Shown here in pieces: positions 1 through 17,065 of a stretch of 26,097 nucleotides of DNA; position 1 is the first letter of the stretch; every line of letters starts with the position of its first letter. The translations under genes were made by a program, and so were the position numbers. Source of the DNA: a virus (lineage: Duplodnaviria > Caudoviricetes); IMG/VR virus record IMGVR_UViG_3300037424_000648, positions 1 to 26,097 of that record. One strand, 5' to 3'. The notes below the pieces were generated by a model, which was given only the letters and a program-made list of their open reading frames with translations, was not told the DNA's origin and did no database searches.

Positions 1-65
1 CCTGGGAGGCCTGCCGGGAGCGCGGGGACCGGGCGGTTAAGCTCCGGATCGAGGTGCTCGAATGA
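1..65 (+). CDS. 3' end of upstream hypothetical gene (partial)
   Basis: Frame open from base 3 (WEACRERGDRAVKLRIEVLE) to TGA 63-65, overlapping the next ATG as ATGA. Confidence 0.55.
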   Translation, partial: WEACRERGDRAVKLRIEVLE

Positions 66-601
66 GACTGATCTGTCCCTCCTGCGGGGCCATGCACAGC
101 ATCGAGGGCTGGCAGGGCAACGCCGACGCGCGCCAGTTCGCGCGCGTCCAGGCCGAGCTGCCCGGGTCGGTGGCGAGGGCCTGCCTGCATTATCTGGCGC
201 TTTTCCGGCCGCGCGCGGAGGGCGGGAGGGGCCTGATCTGGGCCAAGGCGCTGCGCCTGGCGGGCGAGGTGCAGCTGCTGGTCGCCCAGACCCGGATCCA
301 GTGGAAAGGCCAGCCGAGCCGGCCCATCGACGCGACCGTGTGGGGGCTGGCGATGGAGCGCCTGATCGCCAACCCGCCCAAAAAGCTGCCCCTGACCAGC
401 CACGGCTACCTGACCTCCATCGCCTACGACCTGGCCGACGAAATGGACCGGGGGCGGGAGGTGCGGCGCAACCAGGCCGAGCGCGACGGCTCGTTGCGGC
501 GGGAGATCGCTGCGGGGCGGGCCGGGGAGGATGCGCCGGCGGAGCCGCTGGCGCCGGAGGTGCTGCGGGCGATCAGGAATAAAAATATGGGGAGGAAATG
601 A
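62..601 (+). CDS. Conserved Mu-like phage early/middle hypothetical protein with N-terminal CPxCG motif
   Basis: MRLICPSCGA start, YLALFRP, LxWAKAL and PLTSHGYL segments resemble a recurrent Mu-like prophage protein; GAGG upstream. Confidence 0.75.
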   Translation: MRLICPSCGAMHSIEGWQGNADARQFARVQAELPGSVARACLHYLALFRPRAEGGRGLIWAKALRLAGEVQLLVAQTRIQWKGQPSRPIDATVWGLAMERLIANPPKKLPLTSHGYLTSIAYDLADEMDRGREVRRNQAERDGSLRREIAAGRAGEDAPAEPLAPEVLRAIRNKNMGRK

Positions 602-1280: not shown

Positions 1281-1496
1281 ATGAGTTACGAAGTACCGAA
1301 ATTCACGCCCGCCCAGCGCATCTGCTGCACCAGCGTGCAGGACGGCTGCCTGACGATTGACAACACCACGGACTTGCGCGTGCTGCGCGACGCCCTGGAC
1401 TATGAGCGGAGAGGCATGGGGCGGTCCACGCTGATTAAAAAACTGGTCGCGCGCATCAACCAGCTGGAGAGGCGGCGGCGGGAGGTGCCGCGATGA
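1281..1496 (+). CDS. Small hypothetical protein
   Basis: GGAGGAG RBS, 71 aa, ATGA coupling to next gene. Confidence 0.75.
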   Translation: MSYEVPKFTPAQRICCTSVQDGCLTIDNTTDLRVLRDALDYERRGMGRSTLIKKLVARINQLERRRREVPR

Positions 1497-1717
1497 GCGC
1501 GGCGATCCGGCCCGGCACGACGGTGCGCCTCAAACGGCGGCCGTTTTTTCGTGGCCTGGTGGAGGCGGTGCAAAACAATCTCTTCGACGGTTCGGGGGGG
1601 GGGGGCTCGGCGCGGGTGCGCTGGCTGTTCAAGCCCGCCGGCTGGGTCAGCCAGGTCCACTGGAGTCTGGATGATTTGGAGATAATAGAGGCCGGCGATA
1701 CCCTGCCTGAAAAATAA
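1493..1717 (+). CDS. Small hypothetical protein (possible SH3/KOW-like beta barrel) containing a G12 tract
   Basis: GGAGG RBS, ATGA overlap; IRPGTTVRL...GLVEAV...ARVRW...DDLEII pattern. Confidence 0.65.
   Translation: MSAAIRPGTTVRLKRRPFFRGLVEAVQNNLFDGSGGGGSARVRWLFKPAGWVSQVHWSLDDLEIIEAGDTLPEK
1594..1605 (+). repeat. G12 homopolymer
   Basis: Twelve consecutive G, in frame within 1493..1717. Confidence 0.95.
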
Positions 1718-1731
1718 TTTAAAAATATCGA

Positions 1732-1779
1732 CCACAACCCCTTGTGTTTTAGTTTTATTCATGCCACTACATATAGTGT
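1732..1779. promoter_or_regulatory. Tandem 16-bp palindromes resembling NrdR boxes
   Basis: CCACAACCCCTTGTGT (1732-1747) and CCACTACATATAGTGT (1764-1779), starts 32 bp apart; NrdR consensus acaCwAtATaTwGtgt. Confidence 0.65.
1749..1777 (+). promoter_or_regulatory. Candidate late promoter
   Basis: TTAGTT-N17-TATAGT in the most AT-rich gap of the window, upstream of the lysis/morphogenesis operon; the -35 is weak. Confidence 0.4.
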
Positions 1780-1857
1780 GATCCAGCCATTTTGACCCCA
1801 AACCATAAATAGCTGTCAGGAGTCCGCGGGTATGTGACGACCCCAGGAGACTTTAAC

Positions 1858-2265
1858 ATGCTACCTGTACTGGAACTGATCCGCCTGGAGGAGTGCCACG
1901 ACGCCGGGACATTCGGCGTGCTGCGGCTCAACAAGGCGGTTTTCTGCGTTACGCTGGAGCCGGCCGACCGGCTCAACGCGCCCAACCTATCTTCCATCCC
2001 GGCCCAGCAGTACCTGCTGCGGCGGGTGATGAGCGGGCGCTTCGGCGAGACGTTCGAGGTTTTCGACGTTCCGGGACGCACGCTGGTGCGGATGCATCCG
2101 GGCAACCGCGTGATTGAGACGGAGGGCTGCATCCTGCTGGGGCAATATTTCGGTAAACTGGCCGGCGACCGGGCGGTGCTCAATTCGGGGGCCACGTTCG
2201 CCGAATTCATGCGGCGGATGGCCGGGCACGACCTGGCGCATCTGACCATCCGGGAGGTGTATTGA
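1858..2265 (+). CDS. DUF5675-like protein, putative endolysin (L,D-peptidase-like)
   Basis: GTFGVL, FCVTLE, SSIPA and HPGNxxxETEGCILLG motifs; first gene of late operon; start placed at ATG 1858 after AGGAG. Confidence 0.8.
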   Translation: MLPVLELIRLEECHDAGTFGVLRLNKAVFCVTLEPADRLNAPNLSSIPAQQYLLRRVMSGRFGETFEVFDVPGRTLVRMHPGNRVIETEGCILLGQYFGKLAGDRAVLNSGATFAEFMRRMAGHDLAHLTIREVY

Positions 2266-2702
2266 TGAACCCGTTAAAAGAGCTTGTGCGCGAGAGACCC
2301 GTTTATAAATTTTTAGCCTATGGGTTAACCCTCTGCGGGTTCTTCCTGGTGCTGATCATGGCGTTTTCGATGGCCTACGGCTGCGCGGGGAATCAAAGCG
2401 CCACCCAGCAGCTCATGCGGCAGACCGACGATCCGGGGACGATCGCCCTGGGAACCTTTGCCGACGCCCAGGACGCCTACATCGAGATCCAGCAACTCTA
2501 CCTGCCCTACCAGAATGCGCTGCGACAGAGCAATCCGGATCTGGACGCCGAGATCATCGGTTATTTTCGCAAGGCCAACGCCATCCTGGACGATTGGGAG
2601 ATGTTCGGCGATGTGCCCGTCGGCGATAAAGACAGTTTTCGTGCCTACCTGCGCGAGGTGTCGCTACGCCTGGCCCTGGGAGCCAAGAAAGGCGGTGAAT
2701 GA
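2262..2702 (+). CDS. Membrane/lipoprotein of the lysis cassette
   Basis: Hydrophobic N-terminal helix ending in AYG-C (lipobox-like); overlaps endolysin stop. Confidence 0.6.
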   Translation: MMNPLKELVRERPVYKFLAYGLTLCGFFLVLIMAFSMAYGCAGNQSATQQLMRQTDDPGTIALGTFADAQDAYIEIQQLYLPYQNALRQSNPDLDAEIIGYFRKANAILDDWEMFGDVPVGDKDSFRAYLREVSLRLALGAKKGGE

Positions 2703-2914
2703 TGGGGATCGACGTTAAAAACGTGCCCATCGTCGAAATCGCGGTGGGGCTGAACCTGATCGCCGATATTGTCGAGCGCCTTCGCGCCGACCACGCGGTG
2801 GAGATCACCCCCGAGAATATCGCGCAGTACGTGGCCTCGCGGCGCACCCGCCGCCAGGCCCTGAACGCGGCCCTGGGCGTGACCGCCCCGGACAAGGACA
2901 CTTTTATACGATAA
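2699..2914 (+). CDS. Small hypothetical protein
   Basis: Coupled to previous gene, 71 aa. Confidence 0.65.
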   Translation: MMGIDVKNVPIVEIAVGLNLIADIVERLRADHAVEITPENIAQYVASRRTRRQALNAALGVTAPDKDTFIR

Positions 2915-2922
2915 CCCCAAGG

Positions 2923-2964
2923 CTGGCCGGGACGGGCCCGCTCTGTTGGGCTCATCCCGGCCAG
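2923..2964 (+). other. Long GC-rich intergenic hairpin
   Basis: CTGGCCGGGA (2923-2932) pairs with TCCCGGCCAG (2955-2964); inner stem 2934-2940/2947-2953; no U tract. Confidence 0.75.
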
Positions 2965-2983
2965 GCCGCAAAGAGGATAGACC

Positions 2984-3379
2984 ATGCCTGACTTCATGGC
3001 GCAGACGATCGAGATCCTGGCCCCAGCCGTGGGCGGCCTGCTGCTGGCCCTGGTCTCCTGGGCGCTGGCCGAGGCGGCGCGCTACGTGCGCGCGAAAACC
3101 GAAAACGAGGCGGTCAACGATGCCATCGCGCGGATCTGCCACATGACCGAGACCGTGGTGGCCGAGGTCAACCAGACCGTGGTGGACGATCTCAAGCTGG
3201 CCGCGGCCGACGGACGGCTGAACCTGGACCAAGCGCGCCTGATCGCCAGCCAGGCCCTGGCGATGGTTTTGGACCGCATGGCGCCGGGGGTGCTGGAGAT
3301 CGCCGCCCGGGGCGTGGTTGATCTGAAGGAGTTCATCTCCTCGCGCATCGAACGCGCCGTGCGCGAGCAGAAGGGGTAG
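2984..3379 (+). CDS. Putative holin (single N-terminal TM, LL-H-like architecture)
   Basis: GAGGA RBS; N-terminal TM, V..VNQT.V..LK...DG.L and I...IE.AV...K patterns; near endolysin. Confidence 0.6.
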   Translation: MPDFMAQTIEILAPAVGGLLLALVSWALAEAARYVRAKTENEAVNDAIARICHMTETVVAEVNQTVVDDLKLAAADGRLNLDQARLIASQALAMVLDRMAPGVLEIAARGVVDLKEFISSRIERAVREQKG

Positions 3380-3385
3380 CCGGGT

Positions 3386-3601
3386 GTGGATGGCTGCGAT
3401 AGCGGCGCCCGGTCGGCCGAGCAATATCTGCTGGCAAACCTGCACAACCAGCGCCAACGCACGGCGGCACTGGATTCCGGCAGCCCATCGGCCATTGAGT
3501 GCGCCGACTGCGGCGAAGATATCCCGGACGAGCGCCGGGAGGCGGTAGCGGGCTGCACCCGATGCGTGGATTGTCAAACCAAGTTTGAACGGGGGATCTA
3601 A
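3386..3601 (+). CDS. TraR/DksA C4-type zinc-finger protein
   Basis: CADCGEDIPDERREAVAGCTRCVDCQ zinc finger and N-terminal DxxD. Confidence 0.9.
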   Translation: MDGCDSGARSAEQYLLANLHNQRQRTAALDSGSPSAIECADCGEDIPDERREAVAGCTRCVDCQTKFERGI

Positions 3602-3982
3602 TTGGAAGCTATCTCGCTACCGCTGGCCACGATCATCATCCAGATTCTGGGCCTTCCCGGCCTGGTGTTCATCATCTGGCATTTCGACAACAAACGCGAT
3701 GCCAGAAAAGAGGACCTGCGACGGGTGGAGATCGCCGAGCGCGAACGGGCCATCGCGCTGGTGCTGAGCCAGTACCGCGACGACGTGGCCCAGATCAAAC
3801 GGCTCTACGAGTCCAATGTGCACCTGGTCAAAGACTACGAATCGACCTGCCAGCGGTTGGAGCGGCTCTACAGCGAGACGCTATCGGTCATCAGCCTGAA
3901 TACCCAGACCCAGACCCACCTGGTGGACGCCATCAAAAACAACATGTTCTGCCCCGTGGTCCGCAAAGGAGGCCCCGCATGA
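3602..3982 (+). CDS. Membrane-anchored coiled-coil hypothetical protein
   Basis: TTG start after GGGG; N-terminal TM (IIIQILGLPGLVFIIW) then a helical region. Confidence 0.7.
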   Translation: MEAISLPLATIIIQILGLPGLVFIIWHFDNKRDARKEDLRRVEIAERERAIALVLSQYRDDVAQIKRLYESNVHLVKDYESTCQRLERLYSETLSVISLNTQTQTHLVDAIKNNMFCPVVRKGGPA

Positions 3983-4224
3983 ATCTGGAACGCGCCGCCA
4001 TGCGCGGCAATCTGGCCGACAAAAGCGCCCGGGCCGCGCGCCTGCGTCTTCGAATCGAGGGCACCGCCCGGTCGATCCGCCAGGGGCTCAACACAGCCCT
4101 GACGGCGGTGGATGATCTGGAGATCCCCATGATCGCCGGGCAGATGGACGAGCTGGTGGGCGCCTGGGCCGAATTGCAGGCCCTGCGCTCGGAGATCGAC
4201 CGGCTGGAGAGGGAGCTGCGCTGA
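3979..4224 (+). CDS. Small helical hypothetical protein
   Basis: AGGAGG RBS; coupled on both sides. Confidence 0.75.
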   Translation: MNLERAAMRGNLADKSARAARLRLRIEGTARSIRQGLNTALTAVDDLEIPMIAGQMDELVGAWAELQALRSEIDRLERELR

Positions 4225-4682
4225 TGGCTGAAAAAGGGGACAAGGCGCGGCTCTACGACGTGGCCATGCGCATGTACGTCGAGGGGTCCAGCCTGACCGA
4301 CATCGAGGCGGCCCTGGGGGTATCGCGGCAGACGTTGTCCCAGTGGAAGGGCGACTCGAAAAGGCCCTCGGACGAATTCGACGAGTGGGACCGCGGGCGG
4401 AGTCAGAAGCGCAACAACGTACAGCGTCTGCGCGACCTGTTCGACCGCGAACTGACCGCGATGGAAGAGACCGCCGCCGGCGGGCTGAACCATGTCACCG
4501 TGGATGCCATCAGTAAACTGGGCGCGCTGGTGATGAAGTGGGAGCAGCGCGAAAAGGATATCCGCAAACGAGCCCTGGAAGAGGCCGCCAATATCGTGGG
4601 TACGTCGGTCAAAAAGGGCGGCCTGAGTGACGCGGCGGCCGACGAGATCCGCAAGAAAATCCTGGGAATTGCCAGCCGATGA
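4224..4682 (+). CDS. Terminase small subunit (Mu gp27-like; HTH N-terminus)
   Basis: HTH SLTDIEAALGVSRQTLSQWK; C-terminal GLSDAAADEIRKKILGI typical of Mu gp27-like proteins; directly upstream of TerL. Confidence 0.8.
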   Translation: MAEKGDKARLYDVAMRMYVEGSSLTDIEAALGVSRQTLSQWKGDSKRPSDEFDEWDRGRSQKRNNVQRLRDLFDRELTAMEETAAGGLNHVTVDAISKLGALVMKWEQREKDIRKRALEEAANIVGTSVKKGGLSDAAADEIRKKILGIASR

Positions 4683-6277
4683 CGGAACTTTCCACCCCCG
4701 AGCCCCGAACCGCGCGCACTCCCGGCGTGTTGCTGCCATACCAGCAGCGCTGGGTATCGGACCAGGCCCAGGTCAAGCTGTGCGAAAAAAGCCGCCGGAT
4801 CGGCCTTTCCTGGGCCGAGGCCGCCGATGACGCACTGATGACCGCGTCGGCCTCCGGGATGGATGTTTTCTACATCGGCTACAACAAGGACATGGCCCTG
4901 GAATTCATCGAGGACTGCGCGGACTGGGCGCGGTTTTACAACCTGGCCGCGGGTGAGGTCGAAGACTTCATCTGGGACGAGGAAAAAGAGGCCTACCGGG
5001 CTGTACAGGCCTTCCGCATCCGCATGCCCAGCGGATGGAAAATCGTGGCCCTGTCCTCGCGCCCGGCCAACCTGCGCGGCAAACAGGGCAAGATCGTGAT
5101 CGACGAGGCCGCCTTCCACGACGATTTGGACGGGCTGATCAAGGCCGCGATGGCCATGCTGATCTGGGGCGGCCGGGTGGTGATCATTTCCACCCACAAT
5201 GGCGAGGACAACCCATTCAACGAGCTGATCAACCTGATCCGCGCGGGCAAACGCGCCTACAGCCTGCACCGCATCGATTTCGACGACGCCCTGGCGGACG
5301 GCCTTTACCGGCGCGTCTGCCTGCGCCGGAGCATCGACTGGTCGGAAAAAAGCCAGGCGGCCTGGCGGGCCAACGTGGTCAGCCAATACGGCGAGCATGC
5401 CGACGAAGAGCTTTTCTGCATCCCGTCCCAGGGCGGCGGGGTCTACCTGTCCGGCGTGCTGGTGCAGGCCTGCATGGCCGACGGCATCCCGGTGCTGCGC
5501 TGGAGCTGCAGCGACGAATTTGCCCAGGACCCCGAGGCCGAGCGCCGCAGCGTCTGCCAGGCCTGGTGCGAGGATTACCTGCTGGCCAACCTGGAGCAGT
5601 TGGACGGGCAGCACCGGCACTATCTGGGCGAGGATTTCGCCCGCTCCGGCCACCTGACCGTGCTTTGGCCGGGAGAACGGCGCCAGGATCTGTCCGTGCG
5701 GGTGCCCTTTGCCGTGGAGCTGCACAACGTCCCTTTCAGGCAGCAGGAACAGATCCTGTTTTACATCTGCGACCGGCTGCCGCGTTTTTCCCACGGCGCG
5801 CTGGACGCCCGGGGCAATGGCCAATACCTGGCCGAGGTGGCCATGCAGCGCTATGGCATCAGCCGCATCAGCCAGGTGATGCTCTCCGTGCAGTGGTACC
5901 GCGAGAACATGCCCAAATATAAATCGGCCTTCGAGGATCGCTCGATCGAGATCCCCAGGGACGCGGATGTGCTCGACGACCACCGGGCCATCAAGATGAA
6001 AAAGGGGGTCGCCCAGCTCAGCGACGACGCCGAGCGGGTGGGCAAGGACCAAAAAAAGCGCCACGGCGACGCGGCCATCGCCGGGGCCATGCTGTGGCAC
6101 GCCACCCAGCAGGACGGCGGACCGGCCGCCTGCGCCGGCGCCGACCCCGAGCCCACGGCGCGACTGCTGGATCAGGTCCAGCATGCGCGCCGGGCCGGGG
6201 ATGACAATGATACCGCGCGGGTGTTCCGGCGCGAGATACCGCCACGGCTGGTGAGGGAGTTGACCCGCAATGGGTAA
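4679..6277 (+). CDS. terL: Terminase large subunit, Mu gp28-like
   Basis: LLPYQQRW, EKSRRIGLSW (Walker A), IVIDEAAFH (Walker B), ISTHNG, GEDFARSG and RHGDAAIA nuclease motifs. Confidence 0.95.
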   Translation: MTELSTPEPRTARTPGVLLPYQQRWVSDQAQVKLCEKSRRIGLSWAEAADDALMTASASGMDVFYIGYNKDMALEFIEDCADWARFYNLAAGEVEDFIWDEEKEAYRAVQAFRIRMPSGWKIVALSSRPANLRGKQGKIVIDEAAFHDDLDGLIKAAMAMLIWGGRVVIISTHNGEDNPFNELINLIRAGKRAYSLHRIDFDDALADGLYRRVCLRRSIDWSEKSQAAWRANVVSQYGEHADEELFCIPSQGGGVYLSGVLVQACMADGIPVLRWSCSDEFAQDPEAERRSVCQAWCEDYLLANLEQLDGQHRHYLGEDFARSGHLTVLWPGERRQDLSVRVPFAVELHNVPFRQQEQILFYICDRLPRFSHGALDARGNGQYLAEVAMQRYGISRISQVMLSVQWYRENMPKYKSAFEDRSIEIPRDADVLDDHRAIKMKKGVAQLSDDAERVGKDQKKRHGDAAIAGAMLWHATQQDGGPAACAGADPEPTARLLDQVQHARRAGDDNDTARVFRREIPPRLVRELTRNG

Positions 6278-7763
6278 TTGGAAACGCAAACTCGCCGGCG
6301 TGCTGGCGCCGGATTTAATGAGCCCCGAACAGGCCGCCCTGCTGGTGGATTCGGCCGTGCGCCAGGCGCGCCAGGCCCTGCCCGTGCGGCCGGACTACGA
6401 CCCCAAGAATGAGGGCTACCGGCGCTACGGCGGCGACAGCGGCCAGGCGCGCCTGCACGATTTCACCAGCCTGGCCCAGGACACCATGCTGGAGCTGGCC
6501 TATTACCTCTACGACACCAGCGGGCTGGTCAAAAGATTCGTGCGCGATACCAAGAATTTCGTATTGGGCGAGGGGCTGAGCCTGTCGGTTGAAAACGACG
6601 CCAACGGCGAGGCCCTGGCGGTGCTGGAACGTTTCTGGACCGACCCCAACAACCAGATGGACCTGCGCCTGGAGTCGCGCATCGAATTTTTGGGGCTGCT
6701 CGGCGAGCAGTGCTGGCCGGTGCTGGTCAACCCCCACAACGGGCGGGTGTGGCTGACCTACGCCGACCCGGCCAACATCGACACCGTGCACCTGGTGCGC
6801 GACTTCCCCGAGATCCCCGCGGCGGTCAAACTCAAGGGGTCCGGATCGCGGCCGGGGCGGGTGCTGCCGGTGGTGCGGCCGGCGATGGACCCGCGCAAAT
6901 CCGATTTCGGCCGCATGCGAGGCGAGTGCTTCTTTTTCAAAGTTAATGCGCCGCCCAACAGCCCGCGCGGCCGCAGCGACCTGATCCACCTGTTCGATTT
7001 CATCAACGCCTTCGAAGAGGGTATTTTCGACGAGCTGGACCGCCTCAAGGGCATCAAAAGTTTCATCTGGGACGTGACCGTCAACGGCGCCGACCAGGCC
7101 GAGTGCGACCAGTGGGCCAGGAAGTGGGGCACGCCGCGCAGCAACTCCATCCGCGTGCACAACGAGCAGGTCACGTGGCAGGCCGTGGCCCCGAGCATGA
7201 ACCATCACGACAACAAAGCGCTGTTCGACATGATGAAAACCTACCTGGCGGCCTGCATGAACCGGCCGGATTCCTGGCTGGGCAGCGGCGGCAAGGCCTA
7301 CCAGACCGAGGCCGACCTGATGGGCGAACCCACATTCAAGGACCTGGCCAGCCGCCAGAGGTTCGTGAAATACGCCATCGAGTCGGTGCTGCGGTTCGTG
7401 CTGGACCAGGCCATCCTGGCCGGCACGCTCAAGGAGGATGTGAAGAACCCCTTCGCGGCCACGGCCAATTTCCCGGAGATGACCACCAAAGACACCACCA
7501 AAACGGTCACGGCGCTGGTCTCCCTGGCCCAGGCCCTGGTCCTGGCCACCACCAACGGCTGGCTGGGCAACCAGAAGGCCGCCGAGCTGTTCGCCGCGGT
7601 GGCCGAACAGGTGGGGGTGGAGATCGACGTGTCCGAGGAGATCAAGAATGCGGCCACGGCCGACGACGGCGGCGCGGACTACGACCGCCGTGACCGGCTG
7701 ATCGCCGACATCGTGGCGCGCATCGATGCCAGAGGCAAAAAACCGCCGGAGGGCGAGGCATGA
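6270..7763 (+). CDS. Portal protein
   Basis: 497 aa, immediately after TerL and before the MuF-type gene; LLGEQ and RGRSDL segments typical of portals. Confidence 0.8.
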   Translation: MGNWKRKLAGVLAPDLMSPEQAALLVDSAVRQARQALPVRPDYDPKNEGYRRYGGDSGQARLHDFTSLAQDTMLELAYYLYDTSGLVKRFVRDTKNFVLGEGLSLSVENDANGEALAVLERFWTDPNNQMDLRLESRIEFLGLLGEQCWPVLVNPHNGRVWLTYADPANIDTVHLVRDFPEIPAAVKLKGSGSRPGRVLPVVRPAMDPRKSDFGRMRGECFFFKVNAPPNSPRGRSDLIHLFDFINAFEEGIFDELDRLKGIKSFIWDVTVNGADQAECDQWARKWGTPRSNSIRVHNEQVTWQAVAPSMNHHDNKALFDMMKTYLAACMNRPDSWLGSGGKAYQTEADLMGEPTFKDLASRQRFVKYAIESVLRFVLDQAILAGTLKEDVKNPFAATANFPEMTTKDTTKTVTALVSLAQALVLATTNGWLGNQKAAELFAAVAEQVGVEIDVSEEIKNAATADDGGADYDRRDRLIADIVARIDARGKKPPEGEA

Positions 7764-8632
7764 CCCGCCGTCAAAAAGCCTTTGAAAAGCGCCTGCAGGC
7801 GCTGATCGACGGGGCCGGCCGGCTGGAGGACGACGCGGCGCGTCGGGTGGTGCGGCTGCTGGAGGTGGCCCGGTCCGAGATCGCGGCCGAGGTGGCCACG
7901 ACCGAATGGCAGGCCCTGCGCCTGGCCGAGCTGAAATCGGCCGTGGAACGAACCCTGTCGGGCTTCCGCCAGGGCGCCCTGGCCGACCAGTCCGCCGGCA
8001 TTTCCAACGCCTGGAACGCGGGGATCGACATGATCGACGCCCCCCTGGCCTCGGCCGGGATCCGCGCCGGCGCCCCGGAAATCTCGCGCGCGCTGCTGGA
8101 GGTCATGCAGGGCTACAGCCTGGACCTGATCGAAGGGCTTTCGGCCGAGGCCCTGAAAAATGTCAATAACGCCCTGACGATGGGCCTGCTGGGCCAGCAA
8201 ACACCCTACCAGGTGATGCAGCAGGTGGGCCTGTCCGTGGACGGCCCGGGCGTTATGGGCCAGGTGTCGCGGCGCGCCGAGACCATCGTGCGCACCGAAA
8301 TGGGCCGCGTGCAGAGCCTGGCCCGGGCGGCGCGCATGCAGGCCGTGACAGAGGCGGGCACGGACCCGCCCATGAAGTGGAAGAAACGCTGGATCGATTC
8401 GGGCAAGGCCCATCCGCGCGAGGACCATGCGGCCCTGGACGGGGTGACTGTGGAGCTTAACGAGGATTTTCCGGGGGGCATCCCCTACCCGCACGCGCCG
8501 GGACTGCCGGCCGGGCAGGTCATCAACTGCGGGTGCACGCACGTGCTGGTCTCCGACGACTGGGACGACCTGCCGCGCGCGTTCACCCCCATCGACTACG
8601 CCGAGCGTGCCGACTACGGCCGCGCGGACTAA
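7760..8632 (+). CDS. Minor head morphogenesis protein (MuF/SPP1 gp7 family)
   Basis: RRAETIVRTE, KRW, R..H..LDG and INCGC motifs. Confidence 0.9.
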   Translation: MTRRQKAFEKRLQALIDGAGRLEDDAARRVVRLLEVARSEIAAEVATTEWQALRLAELKSAVERTLSGFRQGALADQSAGISNAWNAGIDMIDAPLASAGIRAGAPEISRALLEVMQGYSLDLIEGLSAEALKNVNNALTMGLLGQQTPYQVMQQVGLSVDGPGVMGQVSRRAETIVRTEMGRVQSLARAARMQAVTEAGTDPPMKWKKRWIDSGKAHPREDHAALDGVTVELNEDFPGGIPYPHAPGLPAGQVINCGCTHVLVSDDWDDLPRAFTPIDYAERADYGRAD

Positions 8633-8646
8633 CAAGGAGCAGACCA

Positions 8647-9105
8647 ATGGCAGCCAAGGACGATTTGAAAAAGGAAAAAGAGGACCTCGATAAGAGGACC
8701 GTTGTCGTCGTCGACCGTGAAACCGCGGTGGAAAAGATCGAAGCGGACCTCTTTATCAGGAAAAACGAATTGGACGCCCGTGAACAGGCGCTTTTTGAAC
8801 GCGAGCAGGCCCTGGACGCCCACGATGAGGGGTTGATTTTCGGCGAGTTGAGCGAGACCGTCACGGTGGACGAGGAGACGAAGGCCGTGTGCCGCGAAAT
8901 GTGCAAGGAGTTGGGAATCACCGCCGAGCATGCCCTGGCCTGCAGTTTCGACCGCGCCACGGATACGGTCAGCATCCTGACCGCCGGCGGCAAGTGCGTG
9001 CGGCTGCGCCCGGGCGACAAACCGCCCCAGTTGAGCGCAATCGAGATCACCGGCGTCAACCCCGAGCTGGCCCGGCGCAAACCGGTGGTCGGCAAGCGGC
9101 GATAG
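8647..9105 (+). CDS. Hypothetical head-region protein with N-terminal coiled coil
   Basis: AAGGAG RBS before ATG 8647 (track start 8533 overlaps MuF); charged heptad-like region. Confidence 0.7.
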   Translation: MAAKDDLKKEKEDLDKRTVVVVDRETAVEKIEADLFIRKNELDAREQALFEREQALDAHDEGLIFGELSETVTVDEETKAVCREMCKELGITAEHALACSFDRATDTVSILTAGGKCVRLRPGDKPPQLSAIEITGVNPELARRKPVVGKRR

Positions 9106-9115
9106 GAGCGCATCG

Positions 9116-11509
9116 ATGCAACTGCCCCAGTGGATCGAGGACTTAACCGGCGAGGCCCGCAATATGGCCGCGGCGGTCTACCGGGCCGTGATGGCCAAGG
9201 ACGGCGACGCCGAACGGGCGCTCCGGGCGGCACGGGATACCATCGCGGCCTGTTTCGACAGCGACCAGGGGTCGATATTCTCGCGTGACATGCCCCTCAG
9301 CGAACAGACCCCCGTGCTGCGCTTCCAGGCCGCGCGCCAGGCCGACGCCTCGGGGCTGGTGTGGGAGGCGGTGATCATCGCCCCGGGCATCAGCGCCGGC
9401 TATCCCAGGTTCTACTGGTCCGAGGAGGTGCTGGAATCCTCCGTGGCCGTGTTCGAGAACGTCGACATCAACGCCTACGAGCTGACGGCCGATTTTTTCA
9501 GCCACCTGCCCATCCCGGATTTAAACGCCCTGGAGAACGTCAAGCGCTTCCTGGCGGCCAAAAAAGTGGGCTGGGTGGAAAAGTGCTGGTTCGAGGCGGG
9601 CGCGGGCATCAAGGCCCAAATCCGCTTTTTGGAGGCGCAGCGCTGGCTGCCCGACATGCTGGCCGAGGCCCAGGCGGCCGGGAAAACCGATGTGCTGGGC
9701 CTGTCCATCGACAGCCGCATCCGCGGATGGGATGTCAAACTGGACGAATTCAGCGTGATCTGGGTGACCCAAATTGTATCCTGCTCATCCGTGGACGTGG
9801 TGACCTACCCGGCCGCGGGAGGAAAATTCTTGCGGGCCGTAGCCGGCCTATATCAACAACCAAAGGAGAGCGTCATGAATTGGAAAGAGAAGTTGCTCGC
9901 CATGATCGGCAAGGCCAACCCGGCCCTGCTGGAGGGCAAGGACCGGGCCGCAATGAGCGATGAGGAGATCATCGGGCTGGCCCAGATGGCAATGGAAAAG
10001 CCGGTCAAGTCGCCGGCGGAGGGGGACGGCCAGCGCGCCGCCCAGGGGATGACCCCGGAGGCCATGCGGGCCGAGATGCAGACGGCCGTGGCCGCGCTGG
10101 GCAAGGAGATCGAGCAGCGCGCGGCCTGCGCACGGGTGTTGGAAAAAAACCTGGCGGCCTCGAACCTGCCGGCCCTGACCCAGTCCCGGTTGCGCACGCG
10201 CTTCGAGGGCGGCACCTTCGAGGAGGCCGCCCTGGACGAGGCCATCAAGCAGGAAAAAGAGTATCTGGCGGCCATGAGCGCCCCGCCGGAGCTGGATCTG
10301 GGCGACCAGAGCCGCATCCACGTGGGGCTCAACACGATGGCCAAGATCCAGATCGCCATCGACCGCAGTTTCGGTTTGACCCAGGCGGACATGCAGGGAT
10401 TCGCGCGCATGGAACGCCTGGACAACAAGCCGGTGTTCCAGGATCTGCGAGCGGCCCAGGATTTCGCCGATTACGCCCAGGTGCCGGCATTTTCGGGCCT
10501 GCGCGAGATGTACGTGCACCTGACCGGCGATACCGAAATCACCGGCCGCTTCAACCGGGCCAACCTGCCCGCCGACCTGCGGGCGGCCCAGGACATCACC
10601 TCGGCCACCTTCGCCTTCGCCATCGGCAACACGCTGCACAGACGGCTGATCAAAGACTACAGAGAAGCCAATTTTCAGGAGGATCTGCTGATCTCCATCC
10701 GCAAGCCGGTGCCGGACTTCAAAACCCAGGAAGCCATCAAGGTGGGTTATTTCAGCGACCTGGACAACGTCGATCCCGAGGCTGCCGACTACCAGGAGAT
10801 CGGGGCGGTCACCGACGAGGAGGCCACCTACGCGATCCTGCAAAAGGGCAACATCCTGACGATCACCCGCAAAATGATCATCAACGACGACAAGAGCCTG
10901 GTCAGCCGGCTGGTCTCGCGCCTGGGCCGCGCCGCGCGGCGCACGCACGCCAAATATGTCTGGAACCTGTGGATTGCCAACGCCAACTGCAGCGACGGCA
11001 CGGCCTGGCACACGGCGCCCCACGGTAACCTGGGGGCGGCGGCGCTCTCCTTCGCCACGGTCCTGATCGCCTACAAGGCATTGGCGGCCATGACCGAAAA
11101 GGACAGCGGCGAAATCATCGGGTTGCTGGACAGCCCGTCGGTCAAACCGACCCTGTTCGGCCCTGTGGACCTGATGGAGACCCTCGAAACCATCTCCCTG
11201 GACGAATATTATTACTCGGCCAACGACCTGACCACCAAAGTCAGGAACCCGCTCAAGGGCAAAATCAACCACGCCACGGTCTCGCTGCTGTCCGACGCCA
11301 ACGACTGGGGCCTGATCCTGCCCAGCTCCGAGGTCGACCACATCGAAATGGGCTACCTCAACGGGCGCCAGGAACCCGAGATGTTCGTGGCCGACGCGCC
11401 CCAGGCCGAGCAGGTGTTCGTGGCCGACAAGATCCGCCACAAGATCCGCCACGAGTACGCCGGCACGCCGGTGGATTTCGTGGGGTCGTACAAGGCCATC
11501 GTGGCTTAA
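9116..11509 (+). CDS. Fused prohead protease / scaffold / major capsid protein (Mu gpT-like capsid domain)
   Basis: Protease motifs SH, LGLSID, SVDVVTYPAAGGKF; helical linker; capsid motifs VPDFK, ITRKMIINDD, LGRAARRT, GYLNGRQEP, KIRHEY. Confidence 0.9.
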   Translation: MQLPQWIEDLTGEARNMAAAVYRAVMAKDGDAERALRAARDTIAACFDSDQGSIFSRDMPLSEQTPVLRFQAARQADASGLVWEAVIIAPGISAGYPRFYWSEEVLESSVAVFENVDINAYELTADFFSHLPIPDLNALENVKRFLAAKKVGWVEKCWFEAGAGIKAQIRFLEAQRWLPDMLAEAQAAGKTDVLGLSIDSRIRGWDVKLDEFSVIWVTQIVSCSSVDVVTYPAAGGKFLRAVAGLYQQPKESVMNWKEKLLAMIGKANPALLEGKDRAAMSDEEIIGLAQMAMEKPVKSPAEGDGQRAAQGMTPEAMRAEMQTAVAALGKEIEQRAACARVLEKNLAASNLPALTQSRLRTRFEGGTFEEAALDEAIKQEKEYLAAMSAPPELDLGDQSRIHVGLNTMAKIQIAIDRSFGLTQADMQGFARMERLDNKPVFQDLRAAQDFADYAQVPAFSGLREMYVHLTGDTEITGRFNRANLPADLRAAQDITSATFAFAIGNTLHRRLIKDYREANFQEDLLISIRKPVPDFKTQEAIKVGYFSDLDNVDPEAADYQEIGAVTDEEATYAILQKGNILTITRKMIINDDKSLVSRLVSRLGRAARRTHAKYVWNLWIANANCSDGTAWHTAPHGNLGAAALSFATVLIAYKALAAMTEKDSGEIIGLLDSPSVKPTLFGPVDLMETLETISLDEYYYSANDLTTKVRNPLKGKINHATVSLLSDANDWGLILPSSEVDHIEMGYLNGRQEPEMFVADAPQAEQVFVADKIRHKIRHEYAGTPVDFVGSYKAIVA
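9863..9877 (+). promoter_or_regulatory. Internal RBS and in-frame ATG (9875) within the capsid polyprotein gene
   Basis: AAGGAGAG-cgtc-ATG right after the protease domain. Confidence 0.7.
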
Positions 11510-11530
11510 CCGACAACCCGACAGGAGCCG

Positions 11531-11550
11531 CGCCCGGTTCCGGCCGGGCG
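11531..11550 (+). other. GC hairpin downstream of capsid gene
   Basis: CGCCCGG-N6-CCGGGCG; no clear U tract, so not called a terminator. Confidence 0.5.
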
Positions 11551-11620
11551 GCCGCAGCCCATTTAATCCCGGCCGGACACGCGGGAGAAACCAATGCAAC
11601 CAACCATGAGGAGAGTAAAA

Positions 11621-12556
11621 ATGCTGGCTAATAAACGAATTTTGACGGTCATGCTGGGCCTTTTCCTGGTGCTGGCGGTGGTTCTGCCGGCCCAGGCGGC
11701 CTACGATATTGTGCGGGTCTACGAGCGCATGGGCGGGGTGGCCGGCGAGGTGCTGGCCACCGGAGATGCGGTCTGCATCAAGGACGCCGACGGGCTGATT
11801 TACAAGGCCGACGCCAACGACGCGGCCCTGCGGCCGGCCATCGGCATGGTGGGCAAGGGGGCGCCGGCCATCGGCGACAGTGTGGAGATCGTCACCCGGG
11901 GTATTTTCGCGGGCTGGACGGCGCTGTCCAAAAACGCCGCAGGCTACCTGAGCGAGACCGCCGGCGAGGTGACCCAGGCGGCCCCGGCCTACAGCCAGGT
12001 GATGGGCGTGGCCATTTCGGCCACCGAATACATGATCAGCCCCAAGAATTATTTCGACACCAGCGCCGTGACGGCCCTGGGGGTGCTGACCGGGGCCACG
12101 CCGATCATCCTGGAGGGCGCCACGGCCGACGCCCATGAGACCACCATCGCGGTGACCGATCCCACGGCCGACCGCACGATCACGTTGCCCGACCGCACGG
12201 GCACGGTGGTGCTGGAGACGGTCAGCGTGACCGCCAAAACCCAGGCCGACACGCCTTTCGCGGCGTCCGTGGCCTACGCCGGGCAGGTGCTGACCAACAG
12301 CGGCGCCGGTGGGGCGCTGGTGTTCAACCTGCCCGAGGCCTCCACCTGGATCGGCCGGCGCCTGACCTTTGCCGTGCTGGCGGCCCAGAACCTGGACGTC
12401 AACCCGGACAACGCCGACCTGATCCTGGGGTTGACCAACGCGGCCGGTGACGCCATCCGCAACGCCACGGTGGGCGGCACGGTGACCCTGATGGCCATCG
12501 ACGCCACCAATATCGTGGTCCTGGGCAGCTACGGCACCTGGTCGGACGTCAACTGA
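11621..12556 (+). CDS. Head decoration / capsid fibre protein with apparent signal peptide
   Basis: GAGGAG RBS before ATG 11621; AGEVLATGDAV...IYKADA...AIG cement-like domain; fibre-like repeat; position after capsid gene. Confidence 0.7.
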   Translation: MLANKRILTVMLGLFLVLAVVLPAQAAYDIVRVYERMGGVAGEVLATGDAVCIKDADGLIYKADANDAALRPAIGMVGKGAPAIGDSVEIVTRGIFAGWTALSKNAAGYLSETAGEVTQAAPAYSQVMGVAISATEYMISPKNYFDTSAVTALGVLTGATPIILEGATADAHETTIAVTDPTADRTITLPDRTGTVVLETVSVTAKTQADTPFAASVAYAGQVLTNSGAGGALVFNLPEASTWIGRRLTFAVLAAQNLDVNPDNADLILGLTNAAGDAIRNATVGGTVTLMAIDATNIVVLGSYGTWSDVN

Positions 12557-12557
12557 T

Positions 12558-12692
12558 CCGGTGACGGGTCGCAAACCGATCCCGGCGGCGGGGCGTGTTG
12601 GCCGATTGCCGCGCGCCACGCCGCCGGATTTCAACGCAACGACCCCGCCGCAGCCCGTTGTATGGACCGGGGGTGAGATCGTTCAAATTTGA
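12558..12692 (+). other. Structured intergenic region (nested inverted repeats)
   Basis: CCGGCGGCG...CGCCGCCGG (about 12582-12627) nested in GGGTCG...CGACCC; palindrome TCAAATTTGA at 12683-12692. Confidence 0.6.
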
Positions 12693-12713
12693 GCCTCTGA
12701 GAGCGTTTTAGCC

Positions 12714-13418
12714 ATGAGCACCCTATCCGATTACACCGACGCCCTGGCCGGGCTGGTTCCGGGATCTCATCCCCTGGGAGCCGTCGACCTGTTGGCGGCC
12801 CGCACCCAGGCCGTGGCCAAGGCGTTGGATCTGCACGGCAAGCATCGCGCGGTAATCGTGGTCGAGGACCTTCCCGGCGACGGCGGGTTCGACTACGCCC
12901 TGGACGATCTGGCCGAATGGGCCGAGGGTTTCTCCTCCGTGATCCGGGTGGAGTACCCGGTCGACGACACCAATGCCGTCTCCAACGTTCTGGACGGCGA
13001 CGACTGGACCCTCTACCAACTGCCCGACGGCCGGGTGCTGCGCCTGCTCTCCGACCGCCCGGCGGTGGGCCGGAGCCTGCGGGTGGTTTATACCGCCCGC
13101 CACGCCATCGACGATACGGCCTGCACGGTGGCCGACGGCGATGAACAGGCCGTGCAGAGCCTGGCGGCGGCCTTCTACTGTCGCATCCTGGCGGCGGCCT
13201 ACGCCCTGGACACGGACTCGACCATCAGCGCCGACACGGTCAACCAGGGCCCGCGCCACCGGGCATTTTTGGATTTATCCGCAAAGTACCGCGCCGAGTA
13301 CAACGAGCACATGGGCATCAGCACCGGCAAACCCAAGGCCGCGGTATCCATCCGCGACCAGGACGTGACCTATCCCGGCGGCGGCGACCGCCTGACCCAT
13401 CCGGGGAGACACCGCTAA
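12714..13418 (+). CDS. Putative head-tail adaptor
   Basis: Position; SVIRVEYPV, LRVVYTARH and AVQSLAAAFYC adaptor-like layout. Confidence 0.6.
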   Translation: MSTLSDYTDALAGLVPGSHPLGAVDLLAARTQAVAKALDLHGKHRAVIVVEDLPGDGGFDYALDDLAEWAEGFSSVIRVEYPVDDTNAVSNVLDGDDWTLYQLPDGRVLRLLSDRPAVGRSLRVVYTARHAIDDTACTVADGDEQAVQSLAAAFYCRILAAAYALDTDSTISADTVNQGPRHRAFLDLSAKYRAEYNEHMGISTGKPKAAVSIRDQDVTYPGGGDRLTHPGRHR

Positions 13419-13933
13419 TGGCCGAGCATTACCGCCAGACGGTCGACACCAGCGAGGTCCAGCGCCTGGCCGCCGATTACCCGGAGATGTTCGTGGAAGA
13501 GACCGAGGCCGTGCTCAGGCTGATCACCGCCCGCCTGGAGAGCGACATCGTGCAGGCCACCCCGCGCGGGGTGGGCGGCGCGGCCGGCCTGGCAGGCAGC
13601 ATGTTCGGAGAGGTGCAGACCGCCGGGTTGACCGTGTCGGGCGTGGTGGGCTCGCCGCTGGCCTATGCCGAGGTGGTCGAGGTGGGCCGCCGTCCGGGAT
13701 CGTTCCCGCCGGTAGCGCCCATCGCCCTGTGGGCCCAGCGCAAACTGGGCCTGTCCGAAACCGAGGCCCAGGGAGCCGCCCTGGCCATCGCGCGCAAGAT
13801 TTTCTGGCACGGCACCGAGGGCGCGCACATGTTCCGCGACACCTGGCAGGCCCGGAAGGCCTGGGTCACTTCCATGCTGGAGAGCATCCCGGCGCGCATC
13901 GTGCGGCGCCTGGGTGCGGGAGAGGGGGCATAG
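13418..13933 (+). CDS. HK97 gp10-like tail completion protein
   Basis: ATPRG...LAGS, VGSPLAYAEVVEVGRRPG..PP, HGTEGAHMF motifs. Confidence 0.8.
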   Translation: MAEHYRQTVDTSEVQRLAADYPEMFVEETEAVLRLITARLESDIVQATPRGVGGAAGLAGSMFGEVQTAGLTVSGVVGSPLAYAEVVEVGRRPGSFPPVAPIALWAQRKLGLSETEAQGAALAIARKIFWHGTEGAHMFRDTWQARKAWVTSMLESIPARIVRRLGAGEGA

Positions 13934-14404
13934 ATGGCTCTGGCCGCTCGTCTATCCGAAATCAAAACCGTTTTGAGCGCGGTCTCCGGCATCGGGACGG
14001 TGCACGATTACATCCGTTTCGCGCGGCGCTGGTCGACCATCCTGGACCAGTTCAAGAAAAGCGATCGCATCAACGCCACCATGATCAGCCGCACGGCCTC
14101 GGCCTCGCGCCAGGTGACACTGGGGGAAACCGAGCGGGCGCATGTATTCGCCGTCAGCAGCGTCTACGGGCTGGCCGACGCCTCCGCCACTGAAAAAACG
14201 TTCCAGAACCTGATCGATGCCCAGTATGCGGCATTTCAGGCCTACGAGCTCACCTGGAATCTGTCCGGCATCACATCCCACCCGGACTGGGGCCCCATGT
14301 CGGGCGCCGTGGGGTTGCAGATCGATGCGATCGACATCCGCCTGTTCGGAGAAACCCTGTGCCATTACGCCGCCTGCCGGGTGTGCGTGGTGGAAATCGA
14401 ATGA
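13934..14404 (+). CDS. Putative tail terminator / neck protein
   Basis: 156 aa after gp10-like gene; GIGTVHDYIR and FGETLCHYA segments. Confidence 0.6.
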   Translation: MALAARLSEIKTVLSAVSGIGTVHDYIRFARRWSTILDQFKKSDRINATMISRTASASRQVTLGETERAHVFAVSSVYGLADASATEKTFQNLIDAQYAAFQAYELTWNLSGITSHPDWGPMSGAVGLQIDAIDIRLFGETLCHYAACRVCVVEIE

Positions 14405-14415
14405 GGAGCGACACC

Positions 14416-14775
14416 ATGAAGACCGGAATTTTGACATTGATCGTGCTGCTGTTGGTCGCCGGCGCCGCCGGCGCCATGAACCTGCTCGAAACCGTAACCG
14501 TTGGTCTGTTCAAAGGCAGCCCCCTGGGTGCCGGAGTGGAAGTGTCCGGCGGAGACCCGGCCTATGCCCGCAAATCGGTCACCCTGGCGGCGGCCGACGC
14601 CGGCGCCCGCGCCCACAGCGATACACCGGTGTTCGATGTGCCGGCCGGGGCCAATTTCGATTACGTGGGCTATTTCATGGGTGGTGCCTGCATCGCCGAG
14701 GACGACATCCCCGAGGAGACCTACGGCAGCCAGGGGACCTACACGGTGACCGCCGGCACGCTGTCGATTACCTAA
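14416..14775 (+). CDS. Minor tail/virion protein with apparent signal peptide
   Basis: GAGGAG RBS before ATG 14416; EVSGG.PAYARK.V, PVFDVPAG and YG.QGTYTVT motifs of small phage tail proteins. Confidence 0.7.
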   Translation: MKTGILTLIVLLLVAGAAGAMNLLETVTVGLFKGSPLGAGVEVSGGDPAYARKSVTLAAADAGARAHSDTPVFDVPAGANFDYVGYFMGGACIAEDDIPEETYGSQGTYTVTAGTLSIT

Positions 14776-14787
14776 CCGGAGACTGCA

Positions 14788-15105
14788 ATGCCTGTCATCG
14801 AGGTGGTTTTTAATGGGAGAGACAACGCCAACGACCTGGTGCTCCTGGCCGACGGTGCGCCGGCCGATCTGGCATCGGTCACGCGCATCCGCGTCGTCGG
14901 GAGCAATGCAGAGGTTGAAGTTGATTCCGCGCTCTCGCCGGAGGCCATCAACTGGGCCACCGGCATCACGGGCACGGTACACCTGGGGCTGGGCCATGAG
15001 GAGCTGCCGGTTGGCAACCACGCCTGCCGGGTAATCGTTTACGATCCGGCCAACCCCAACGGCATCGACTGGGGGCTTGTCGTGTTGTCGGTCAAAGGTC
15101 CGTAG
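14788..15105 (+). CDS. Small beta-rich virion-region hypothetical protein
   Basis: GGAG RBS, 105 aa. Confidence 0.7.
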   Translation: MPVIEVVFNGRDNANDLVLLADGAPADLASVTRIRVVGSNAEVEVDSALSPEAINWATGITGTVHLGLGHEELPVGNHACRVIVYDPANPNGIDWGLVVLSVKGP

Positions 15106-15146
15106 CGACTTGGGAGTGCGTGGGTAAAATAGAATAGGAGGAATCG

Positions 15147-15326
15147 ATGTATCGACTGAAAAAAGGCGTGGAAAGTTTCGAGATCGTCGACGGGCCCCAG
15201 GCGGGCCTGAAATTCGAGCGCGGGAAAACCTACTCACAGGCGCCGGAGGGCTACCGGCGGCGCTTTGAGCCGGCCGACCCGCCGGCCGCAAAAGACAAAC
15301 CGGAAAAGGGGGCTAAGAGCAAATGA
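15147..15326 (+). CDS. 59-aa hypothetical protein missing from the ORF track
   Basis: AGGAGG RBS; MYRLKKGVESFEIVDGPQAGLKFERGKTYSQAPEGYRRRFEPADPPAAKDKPEKGAKSK; stop overlaps tail tube ATG as ATGA. Confidence 0.75.
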   Translation: MYRLKKGVESFEIVDGPQAGLKFERGKTYSQAPEGYRRRFEPADPPAAKDKPEKGAKSK

Positions 15327-16600
15327 GATCCCATCGCGCGACCCACAATCTGATCGCCGTGAGTGCCAACGCGGCCGAGACGGCCATCAACACCGAACAG
15401 ACCCTGGACACCAGCATGCTGGTGGACATGGGCGACATCATCCAGCGCCAGCCGCGCCGCGAGGATAACGCCAGCGAGCTCAACGGCAAGGAAGAGGCCG
15501 ACGCCATCTACGACCTGGGGCACACCGTGCAGGCCAATTTCACATTTAACAAGGCGCAGCCGCAGCACTTCGCATTCATCCTGGCCTACGCCCTGGGGGA
15601 CGTGGCCACGGCGGCGGCCGGCGACGGCTACCTGCACACGATCACGCCCGCGCTGGACGATCTGGACGCGGCGCGGAGCAACCCCAGCTTCACCGCGGCC
15701 CAGCGTTTCGGGCTGACCGTGCTCAAGCAGCGCTTTGCCTCGCTGTTCATGGATTCGTTCACGGCCACCTTCGCCAAGGATGACTGGCTCAAAATTGTGG
15801 GCCAGGCCCTGGGCACGGGCAAGATCACCAAAAACGTGGTCGAGGAAACCATCAGCGCGGCCGAGACCGTCACCCAACTGACCCTGGCGGCCAACGCCGT
15901 GGAGGGATCCACAGCCCAGGCGCGGCTGGACAACGTCCAGCGCATCCGCGTGGAGCTGGCCGCGGGGGTCTGGACCGAGGTGGCCTACACGGCCGTGTCG
16001 GCGGCCACGCCGGCGGTGATCACCATCGTGGCCCCGGGCGAGGCGGCCACCGTGCGCAGCTACAAGGTGCTCTACGTGGCCGCCGAAAGCGGCTGGATGA
16101 CATTCCCGGCGCGGGTTTCCGAGACGCCTATGCGCATTTCTCAGCTCAACTGCGTGCTGGGCGGCTCCTGGACCGGATCGGCCTTTGCCGGAGGGCGCAC
16201 GCTCAACGCCGATATCCGCACCATCACCTGGAACTTTCTCAACAACGGTGCCGTGGAGTTCATCCCGGGGGCCGACGGGGCCTATGCCGCGCGCTATTTC
16301 CGCGACAGCCGTACCCAGACCATCGCCCTGGACCGCGAGTTCAAAGATTATATCCTGCAGAATCATATCGACGCCAACGACACCTTCGGCCTGCACCTGG
16401 TGGCCACGGGGGCCGTGTTCGACGACCCGCATGCCTACAAGTTGGAACTGATTTTTCCGAAATTGGGCGTGGTCACGGCGCCGATCAGCGTGGACGGCAA
16501 GCGCCTGGCCGAAGCCGGCGACCTGCGCGTGATGGAAGATGATACCTACGGCAGCGTGATCGCCAGAATAACCAATCTGCAGGCCACCTACGCGGCCTGA
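15323..16600 (+). CDS. Major tail tube protein
   Basis: 425 aa upstream of chaperones and tape measure; YLHTITP, PSFTAAQR, KLELIFPK tube-like motifs. Confidence 0.75.
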   Translation: MRSHRATHNLIAVSANAAETAINTEQTLDTSMLVDMGDIIQRQPRREDNASELNGKEEADAIYDLGHTVQANFTFNKAQPQHFAFILAYALGDVATAAAGDGYLHTITPALDDLDAARSNPSFTAAQRFGLTVLKQRFASLFMDSFTATFAKDDWLKIVGQALGTGKITKNVVEETISAAETVTQLTLAANAVEGSTAQARLDNVQRIRVELAAGVWTEVAYTAVSAATPAVITIVAPGEAATVRSYKVLYVAAESGWMTFPARVSETPMRISQLNCVLGGSWTGSAFAGGRTLNADIRTITWNFLNNGAVEFIPGADGAYAARYFRDSRTQTIALDREFKDYILQNHIDANDTFGLHLVATGAVFDDPHAYKLELIFPKLGVVTAPISVDGKRLAEAGDLRVMEDDTYGSVIARITNLQATYAA

Positions 16601-16625
16601 CCCTGACCGAGAGAGAGGAACACCC

Positions 16626-17048
16626 ATGCCCAGACTGCTCAGCAGCGCCAACCACACCCTGCGCATCCACGACAACCTGTCCGGATCGGATATCGAGCTG
16701 TACTACCGCTCGCCGACCACGGCCGAGCACACGGCCTACCAGAACGCCTGTGTCGTGCGTAAAGGTAAAAAAGTTTTGACGCGCTACCCCGAGGCGCGCC
16801 TCAAGCACGGGCTGGCGATCCTGACCGGTTTCCGGGCCGGTGATTTCGCGGTGCCCGGGCAGGACGGCCGGGCGCGGGCGATCGCCTCGAATCCGGGCCA
16901 TGCCGATTTCGATCCCGACTGGCGCGCGCAGCTGGAAAAGTACGCCGGCGACCTGATCCAACTGCTGGCGGCGCATGTGTTCGACGCCCCGGCCGAGGTG
17001 GACCTGGACGATGCCGAGCCGGACGGAGAGGCCATCGAACCGGACTGA
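16626..17048 (+). CDS. Tail assembly chaperone (lambda G analogue)
   Basis: GAGGA RBS; between tube and tape measure; acidic C-terminus. Confidence 0.7.
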   Translation: MPRLLSSANHTLRIHDNLSGSDIELYYRSPTTAEHTAYQNACVVRKGKKVLTRYPEARLKHGLAILTGFRAGDFAVPGQDGRARAIASNPGHADFDPDWRAQLEKYAGDLIQLLAAHVFDAPAEVDLDDAEPDGEAIEPD

Positions 17049-17065
17049 CGGCCGACCTTGCGGCC

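Follow-up and report, generated by a model that had tools for sequence, protein, structure and literature searches.

In a Mu-like phage from sediment, two 16-bp boxes ahead of the late genes are predicted, on well-supported grounds, to form an operator for NrdR, the bacterial repressor of ribonucleotide reductase genes. Host NrdR probably represses the late genes from this site until dATP drops or NrdR is outnumbered by copies of the phage, and the phage would thus likely time particle production by the nucleotide supply of its host. NrdR proteins bind across species. The virus record, all 26,097 bases of which make up the window, is ∼44% complete, holds the late half of the phage and contains no host DNA.

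The earlier note had described two 16-bp boxes in an AT-rich gap with a TATAGT inside the second, and all of these were located, with a 16-bp linker between the boxes and their starts 32 bp apart (Table 1). The gap is bounded by the end of a 74-aa ORF (1717) and the ATG of the DUF5675 gene (1858) and has a lower GC content (0.50) than the rest of the first 6 kb (about 0.6-0.7). The boxes end 78 nt upstream of the DUF5675 gene, the opener of the late genes. Even with one mismatch allowed, the window contains no CACWA-N4-TWGTG core beyond these two; counted as single boxes they are within chance, 2 cores being yielded by 19/100 shuffles. The spacing-matched pair is far beyond chance. Scored at 31-32 bp spacing with a matrix derived from published boxes (9 of the 10 boxes in Table 1 of PMC13584703, omitting the atypical S. 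coelicolor nrdAB box 2) the pair reached 28.7 bits (8.6 + 20.1), a value equalled by 0/300 shuffles of the window (best 16.1) and 0/5000 shuffles of the gap (best 16.8). Contigs from run X2 (1584-3350) and run X3 (1594-2084), neither of which is the possible source run, span the boxes with zero differences, and contigs extend beyond base 1 of the record, in X3 by 2.1 kb and in X1 by more.

Table 1. Features of the window around and downstream of the predicted operator; the last line gives a comparison pair in the numbering of its own locus.
Feature	Position	Strand	Remarks
Conserved Mu-like gene (phrog_2161)	62..601	+	anchor for collecting relatives
Short palindromic repeat	1022-1055		at end of ORF 855-1058
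74-aa ORF	1493..1717	+	ends 14 nt upstream of box 1; homolog in L455
Swapped module	1497..2375	+	in L452 replaced by about 2.2 kb: Mor, Mor-type promoter, amidase
A/T tract, putatively UP-element-like	1710..1727	+	just ahead of box 1
Weak sigma70 candidate, TCGACC-16-TAGTTT	1728..1755	+	7/12; straddles box 1 like host nrd promoters
NrdR-type box 1	1732-1747	.	CCACAACCCCTTGTGT; C4, A6, T11, G13 present; GC-rich centre; 8.6 bits
NrdR-type box 2	1764-1779	.	CCACTACATATAGTGT; all six conserved positions; 20.1 bits
-10 candidate TATAGT	1772-1777	+	inside box 2; no -35
DUF5675 protein, lysin candidate	1858..2265	+	first late gene
Rest of lysis block and Mu gp27-like gene	2262..4682	+	begins with two ORFs
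Holin	2984-3379	+
DksA/TraR zinc finger	3386-3601	+
ORFs of lysis block	3602-4224	+
Mu gp27/HTH	4224-4682	+
Terminase large subunit, portal, Mu F, protease-capsid and tail genes	4679..25465	+	co-oriented
MITE-like element of L533 with a strong NrdR pair	1461-1587		17.1 + 17.1 bits; roughly 125-bp element

The critical positions of an NrdR box, given as C4, G13, A6 and T11 in the available part of PMC13584703, were all found in both boxes, and box 2 was identical in 15/16 letters to the nrd box of a host-phylum genome (L532). The 16-bp linker meets the optimum for NrdR, which according to the accessible text of PMC12051234 binds best with 15-17-bp linkers and also accepts 24-27. Between C4 and G13 box 2 is 88% AT with a middle AT and box 1 is 50% AT with a middle CC (mean 69%); the guide in the available part of PMC13584703 is a middle AT, or ≥63% AT from C4 to G13, and box 1 fails both the consensus and the search expression given there. 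The earlier note had pointed to the CCCC centre of box 1 as non-consensus. This was confirmed, yet the published mutagenesis predicts tolerance: in the same partial source, NrdR affinity was still 65-82 nM when both boxes carried a CG middle (50% AT mutant), and the CCCC centre is therefore probably tolerated.

Host-phylum operators were scored with the same matrix. The best pairs upstream of five long ATP-cone genes in four Desulfobacterota genomes scored 18.6-30.7 bits and three strict host-phylum pairs 34.0-37.8 bits, and the window pair lies within the 18.6-37.8 bits of these nrd pairs, the phage's own host being a presumed one. The strict pattern matched 4/401 host-phylum genomes, once in a MITE-like element and three times upstream of putative reductase genes, so called by reading of the sequence. 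The host is taken to be a member of the Desulfobacterota on the basis of named homologs and of syntenic prophages in Desulfosarcina bins, although a bin with the label Pseudomonadota also holds one syntenic prophage. A host lacking nrdR had been named earlier as a refuting condition; NrdR (TIGR00244 above cut-off) was present in 5/5 genomes with DUF5675 relatives, the phage's own host again being a presumed one. As the key positions, the optimal spacing, the host-range score and the presence of NrdR in the likely hosts all agree, the identification of the boxes as predicted NrdR sites is considered well supported.

The genes downstream serve lysis, packaging, head and tail and include no reductase, so the pair departs from the usual position of NrdR boxes upstream of reductase genes; none of the 31 scanned ORFs was assigned to nucleotide metabolism. 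The endolysin candidate, holin, terminase, head and tail genes claimed earlier were all found, and the boxes do lie where the late operon begins. Intergenic gaps in the block from the terminase onward are ≤84 nt as far as 12556. The available part of bioRxiv 10.64898/2026.04.11.717860 describes DUF5675 as a C82-peptidase-like lysin candidate, and in the closest sibling phage (L452) an amidase occupies its place.

Published biochemistry, as far as the sources for bacterial NrdR operators were accessible (PMC13584703, PMC12051234, PMC9110341), describes NrdR as binding box pairs as a dATP/ATP-loaded tetramer that kinks each box, and as releasing them when loaded with ATP only. In the window phage, host NrdR loaded with dATP+ATP would cover the promoter region at the boxes and block either a box-overlapping promoter (TATAGT or the box-1 candidate) or upstream read-through, and the lysis and virion genes would stay silent in the lysogen and in early infection. 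Replicative transposition would then lower dATP and multiply the operator copies, NrdR would let go, and the late genes would start after replication. A Mor-type activator from the missing part of the genome could act alone or compete with NrdR; such a dual design of activator and NrdR was counted within this best explanation. The available part of PMC6755750 reports that the host NrdR regulon is induced in lytic growth of the pneumococcal phage SpSL1, so infection can release NrdR. The SpSL1 genome contains no NrdR pair, and a decoy pair in SpSL1 was rejected as the cause of that induction.

The viral collection was scanned with a strict tandem pattern in which the box centres were left free. 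Strict pairs were found in 121 stretches in 35/64 parts of the collection (about 220 when extrapolated to all), against controls over the whole collection of 1 at 26-27 bp spacing and 12 with the reversed pattern. Distinct pairs, in spacing counts from different half-scans, numbered 43 at 31, 65 at 32 and 21 at 42, a second peak, while every remaining spacing between 33 and 48 gave 0-14. Of 235 boxes, 168 had an NrdR-like sequence at the free centre and 3 had CCCC; in one phage (L199) the core of the window's box 1 adjoins a terminase gene. Flanks were available for 80 loci, representing 55 families, in 17 of which a head or packaging gene, in one a tail gene and in none a reductase lies within two called genes of the pair; the pairs of the remaining families precede replication, nucleotide or unassigned genes. 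Record-wide searches placed the terminase in 28 pair-bearing records, and the pair lay ≤3.5 kb upstream of it in 13/28 vs 4.6 expected (P about 5e-5); for records ≥20 kb the figures were 4/15 vs 1.0 (P 0.013) at the 3.5 kb limit and 2/15 vs 0.7 (P 0.16) at 2.5 kb, all with distance thresholds varied after the data were seen and a null that ignores the placement of non-coding space. In five phages >100 kb the pair is far from the terminase. A -35 element stands directly ahead of a box in 23/85 distinct phage pairs vs 7.9 expected.

These data bear on a reading in which the pair is an NrdR decoy: replicating copies would soak up NrdR, the host ribonucleotide reductases would switch on and dNTPs would rise, the gap being merely free non-coding space. 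It would suit a decoy that phage pairs are nearer consensus than most host pairs, given how few host-phylum genomes match the strict pattern (4/401), that a class I/II reductase occurs in just 2/49 pair-bearing records, distant from the pair, and that some phages carry several pairs or arrays, with some pairs overlapping called ORFs. The window, however, has a single pair whose first box is weak, and in SpSL1 the NrdR regulon is induced although its genome has no pair. Phage pairs are also enriched upstream of terminase and tied to -35 elements, and this last association speaks more for control in cis than for a decoy alone. A decoy as the whole account is considered unlikely; the two mechanisms can coexist.

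Relatives were collected as 86 Mu-like loci, 80 via the anchor gene, utilizing a five-sequence alignment (a single anchor query matched nothing), and six via DUF5675. DUF5675 was rejected as a marker of relatives, being modular, with only 6/196 loci syntenic. A lack of conservation in related prophages had been named earlier as a refuting outcome, and conservation was not supported: a pair comparable to that of the window was found in 0/86 loci, where one weak 17.5-bit pair occurs (L513), and an intergenic pair ≤300 bp upstream of DUF5675 in 0/196 genes, with one loose pair near DUF5675 (L116) falling within a coding region. What stands of the earlier interpretation is therefore the box call and the position over the late operon, and what lacks support is conservation.

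The place of the boxes is that of a control site in the relatives. A Mor-family gene lies between the anchor and the late genes in 47/69 relatives with a downstream late marker and is missing there in 22/69; in 3/16 relatives outside the 69 (n=85) Mor is upstream of the anchor. No Mor gene is present in the 26-kb record, but because the record is ∼44% complete and Mor precedes the anchor in three relatives, the missing part may encode an activator. NrdR boxes as a general substitute in Mor-less relatives were rejected (0/22), small regulators of other kinds being read from the sequences of these phages. The Mor-less relatives (L453-L478, L482, L508, L512) carry varied small genes between the anchor and the lysis genes, read by eye as zinc-ribbon, helix-turn-helix and 45-60-aa proteins, and the late-control slot is therefore a swap hotspot. 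Both flanks of the module exchanged between the window phage and L452 are 75-79% identical, and sequences of both were present in run X3 and in run X5, where the window phage was found only in pieces.

Such an exchange could have delivered a true NrdR operator as a passenger with no selected role, either with the module or on a small mobile element. The pair does sit within the swapped segment, with nothing comparable in the 86 relatives, and in a Desulfobacterota genome one host-phylum pair (L533), found near the end of a contig and away from reductase genes, is contained in a MITE-like element that has inverted ends and is bordered by CTAG. That element is possibly a MITE carrying NrdR operators, and such operators could therefore move. 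In the window no inverted repeats flank the pair, and a mobile-element origin was rejected on that ground. The pair also sits exactly at the late control site of the relatives, and the interval has no other recognisable late switch. A passenger without function is thus regarded as distinctly unlikely.

The promoter itself was compared with host nrd and Mor-type promoters. No strong promoter (≥9/12) was found in the gap. Overlap with the RNA polymerase site is expected of an NrdR operator; two weak candidates overlap the boxes, neither reaching 9/12 and neither convincing without an activator; as no + strand terminator was predicted between the 74-aa ORF and the boxes, read-through is a third option. 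TCGACC-16-TAGTTT copies the layout of host pairs, 9/10 of which have a -35 ahead of a box. TATAGT gains support as a -10 candidate from the Mor-type promoters of the relatives. When 24 regions downstream of Mor genes were searched for a motif, TTTCTCAAGTGCTTTGGT was obtained, and 19/24 regions were kept as clear Mor dyads, five being dropped as weak or not promoter-like. The clear dyads are of CTCAA-N4-TTTGG type with the best -10 37-38 bp from the dyad start in 15/19, and TATAGT lies 39 bp from the start of box 1. Box 1, CACAA-N4-TTGTG, shares the AA-N4-TT shape of these dyads and, like most of them, has a GC-rich centre. With TATAGT as -10 its centre falls near -44.5, which matches a dyad near -43.5 followed by a -10 with no -35.

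Since box 1 lies 39 bp before TATAGT and the dyad shape is shared, the operator may have arisen by remodelling of a Mor-type promoter at this very position, in which case box 1 would descend from the dyad and the right arm of box 2 from the -10. The dyad-to--10 geometry of Mor promoters approximates the three-turn spacing of NrdR boxes, so the mutational path would be short. A further-reaching account, in which the phage dropped the Mor activator, turned the Mor promoter into an NrdR operator and took the host dATP sensor as its late switch, while dozens of unrelated phage families independently adopted gating by the same sensor, is offered tentatively, the balance of judgement being against it.

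The same promoter could instead be served by Mor/C-type activation only, with an activator from the missing left part binding box 1, TATAGT as -10 and no role for NrdR. The Mu C site is described in the available part of PMC2582627 as a 16-bp dyad centred at -43.5 with a -10 and no -35, close to the position of box 1; the 39-bp distance is near the relatives' 37-38, three relatives have Mor upstream of the anchor, and on a symmetric arm matrix box 1 scored 6.0, within the low tail of the relatives' 4.5-13.9. A Mor-type binder for box 1 is therefore conceivable, the left part of the genome being missing. On the unsymmetrised arm matrix, however, box 1 (2.9) fell under all 19 relatives (5.0-15.7), and on the 18-bp Mor motif the gap scored 2.3 bits, a chance level reached by 37% of shuffles. 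The 19 Mor dyads scored -11.3 to -0.3 bits on the NrdR matrix vs 8.6 for box 1, none of them being box-like. Activation alone also leaves the left arm of box 2 unexplained, the rest of this box having a chance of about 2e-4 given TATAGT. It was accordingly judged improbable as a complete explanation.

A phage-encoded protein of NrdR-like specificity as the binder is very improbable: the early region of the phage is missing from the record and could encode one, but NrdR above the family cut-off was found in 0/50 pair-bearing phage records, with three marginal hits (E about 1e-4). As Mu-type packaging begins at the genome end, a pac or cos site was rejected as the role of the boxes in this Mu-like phage.

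The predicted operator resembles those of bacteria (E. coli nrdAB, nrdHIEF and nrdDG; S. coelicolor nrdRJ and nrdAB) in its two 16-bp partial palindromes with a 16-bp linker, in C4, A6, T11 and G13, in its overlap with promoter candidates and in a score in the range of host-phylum nrd pairs. It differs in standing before phage lysis and virion genes in a record without a reductase gene, and in a first box without the middle AT; the site is a prediction. With the Mor/C-activated middle and late promoters of Mu, as far as the available part of PMC2582627 describes them, and with the Mor promoters of the relatives it shares a dyad ∼44 bp upstream of the presumed start and a -10 without -35, just ahead of lysis genes. 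Unlike these, it has no Mor/C gene at the usual place, its dyad departs from the relatives' motif toward the NrdR box, and its -10 lies within a second NrdR box that is nearly perfect.

The late genes of the window phage would depend on ongoing DNA replication, as in T4, where late transcription is tied to replication via the sliding clamp. Unlike in T4, the coupling would run via a metabolite-sensing repressor of the host and would require no phage protein. The full texts searched, which were mostly open-access ones, contained no description of NrdR operators at late promoters of phages; a 2005 comparative study that defined NrdR boxes reportedly listed some non-reductase targets. New here is a transposable phage whose NrdR pair takes the place of the Mor control site with nearly its geometry.

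If phages do put NrdR operators on late promoters, a host metabolite would couple virion building and lysis to replication, no phage regulator would be needed, and lysogens would gain a second lock on lethal genes. A natural comparison is provided by two sibling Mu-like phages from the same sediment samples, which have Mor or the NrdR pair at one spot.

Several minor observations were made on the surrounding sequence. The 74-aa ORF contains a run of 12 G at 1594-1605, 130 bp ahead of the boxes, at which the X2 and X3 contigs break; the run may be phase-variable or may be an effect of assembly. The repeat at 1022-1055, which presumably is a GTAG-type REP element by its resemblance, also occurs in L452, and its very high depth and many loose ends show that it is multi-copy in sediment bacteria.

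In the wider collection, arrays of four to seven NrdR-type boxes were seen in L263 (92-250), L201 (1419-1570), L221 and the L208 family, several of them near contig ends or upstream of terminase. In the L203, L228, L231 and L246 families, which are larger and low-GC, the pair stands before MazG-like, NAD-salvage, ligase or primase genes, and these genes make up a second class of phage NrdR targets beside the late ones. In L227 (3001-4067) a pair with a good promoter lies directly before an abortive-infection resistance gene that follows the lysin of a prophage.
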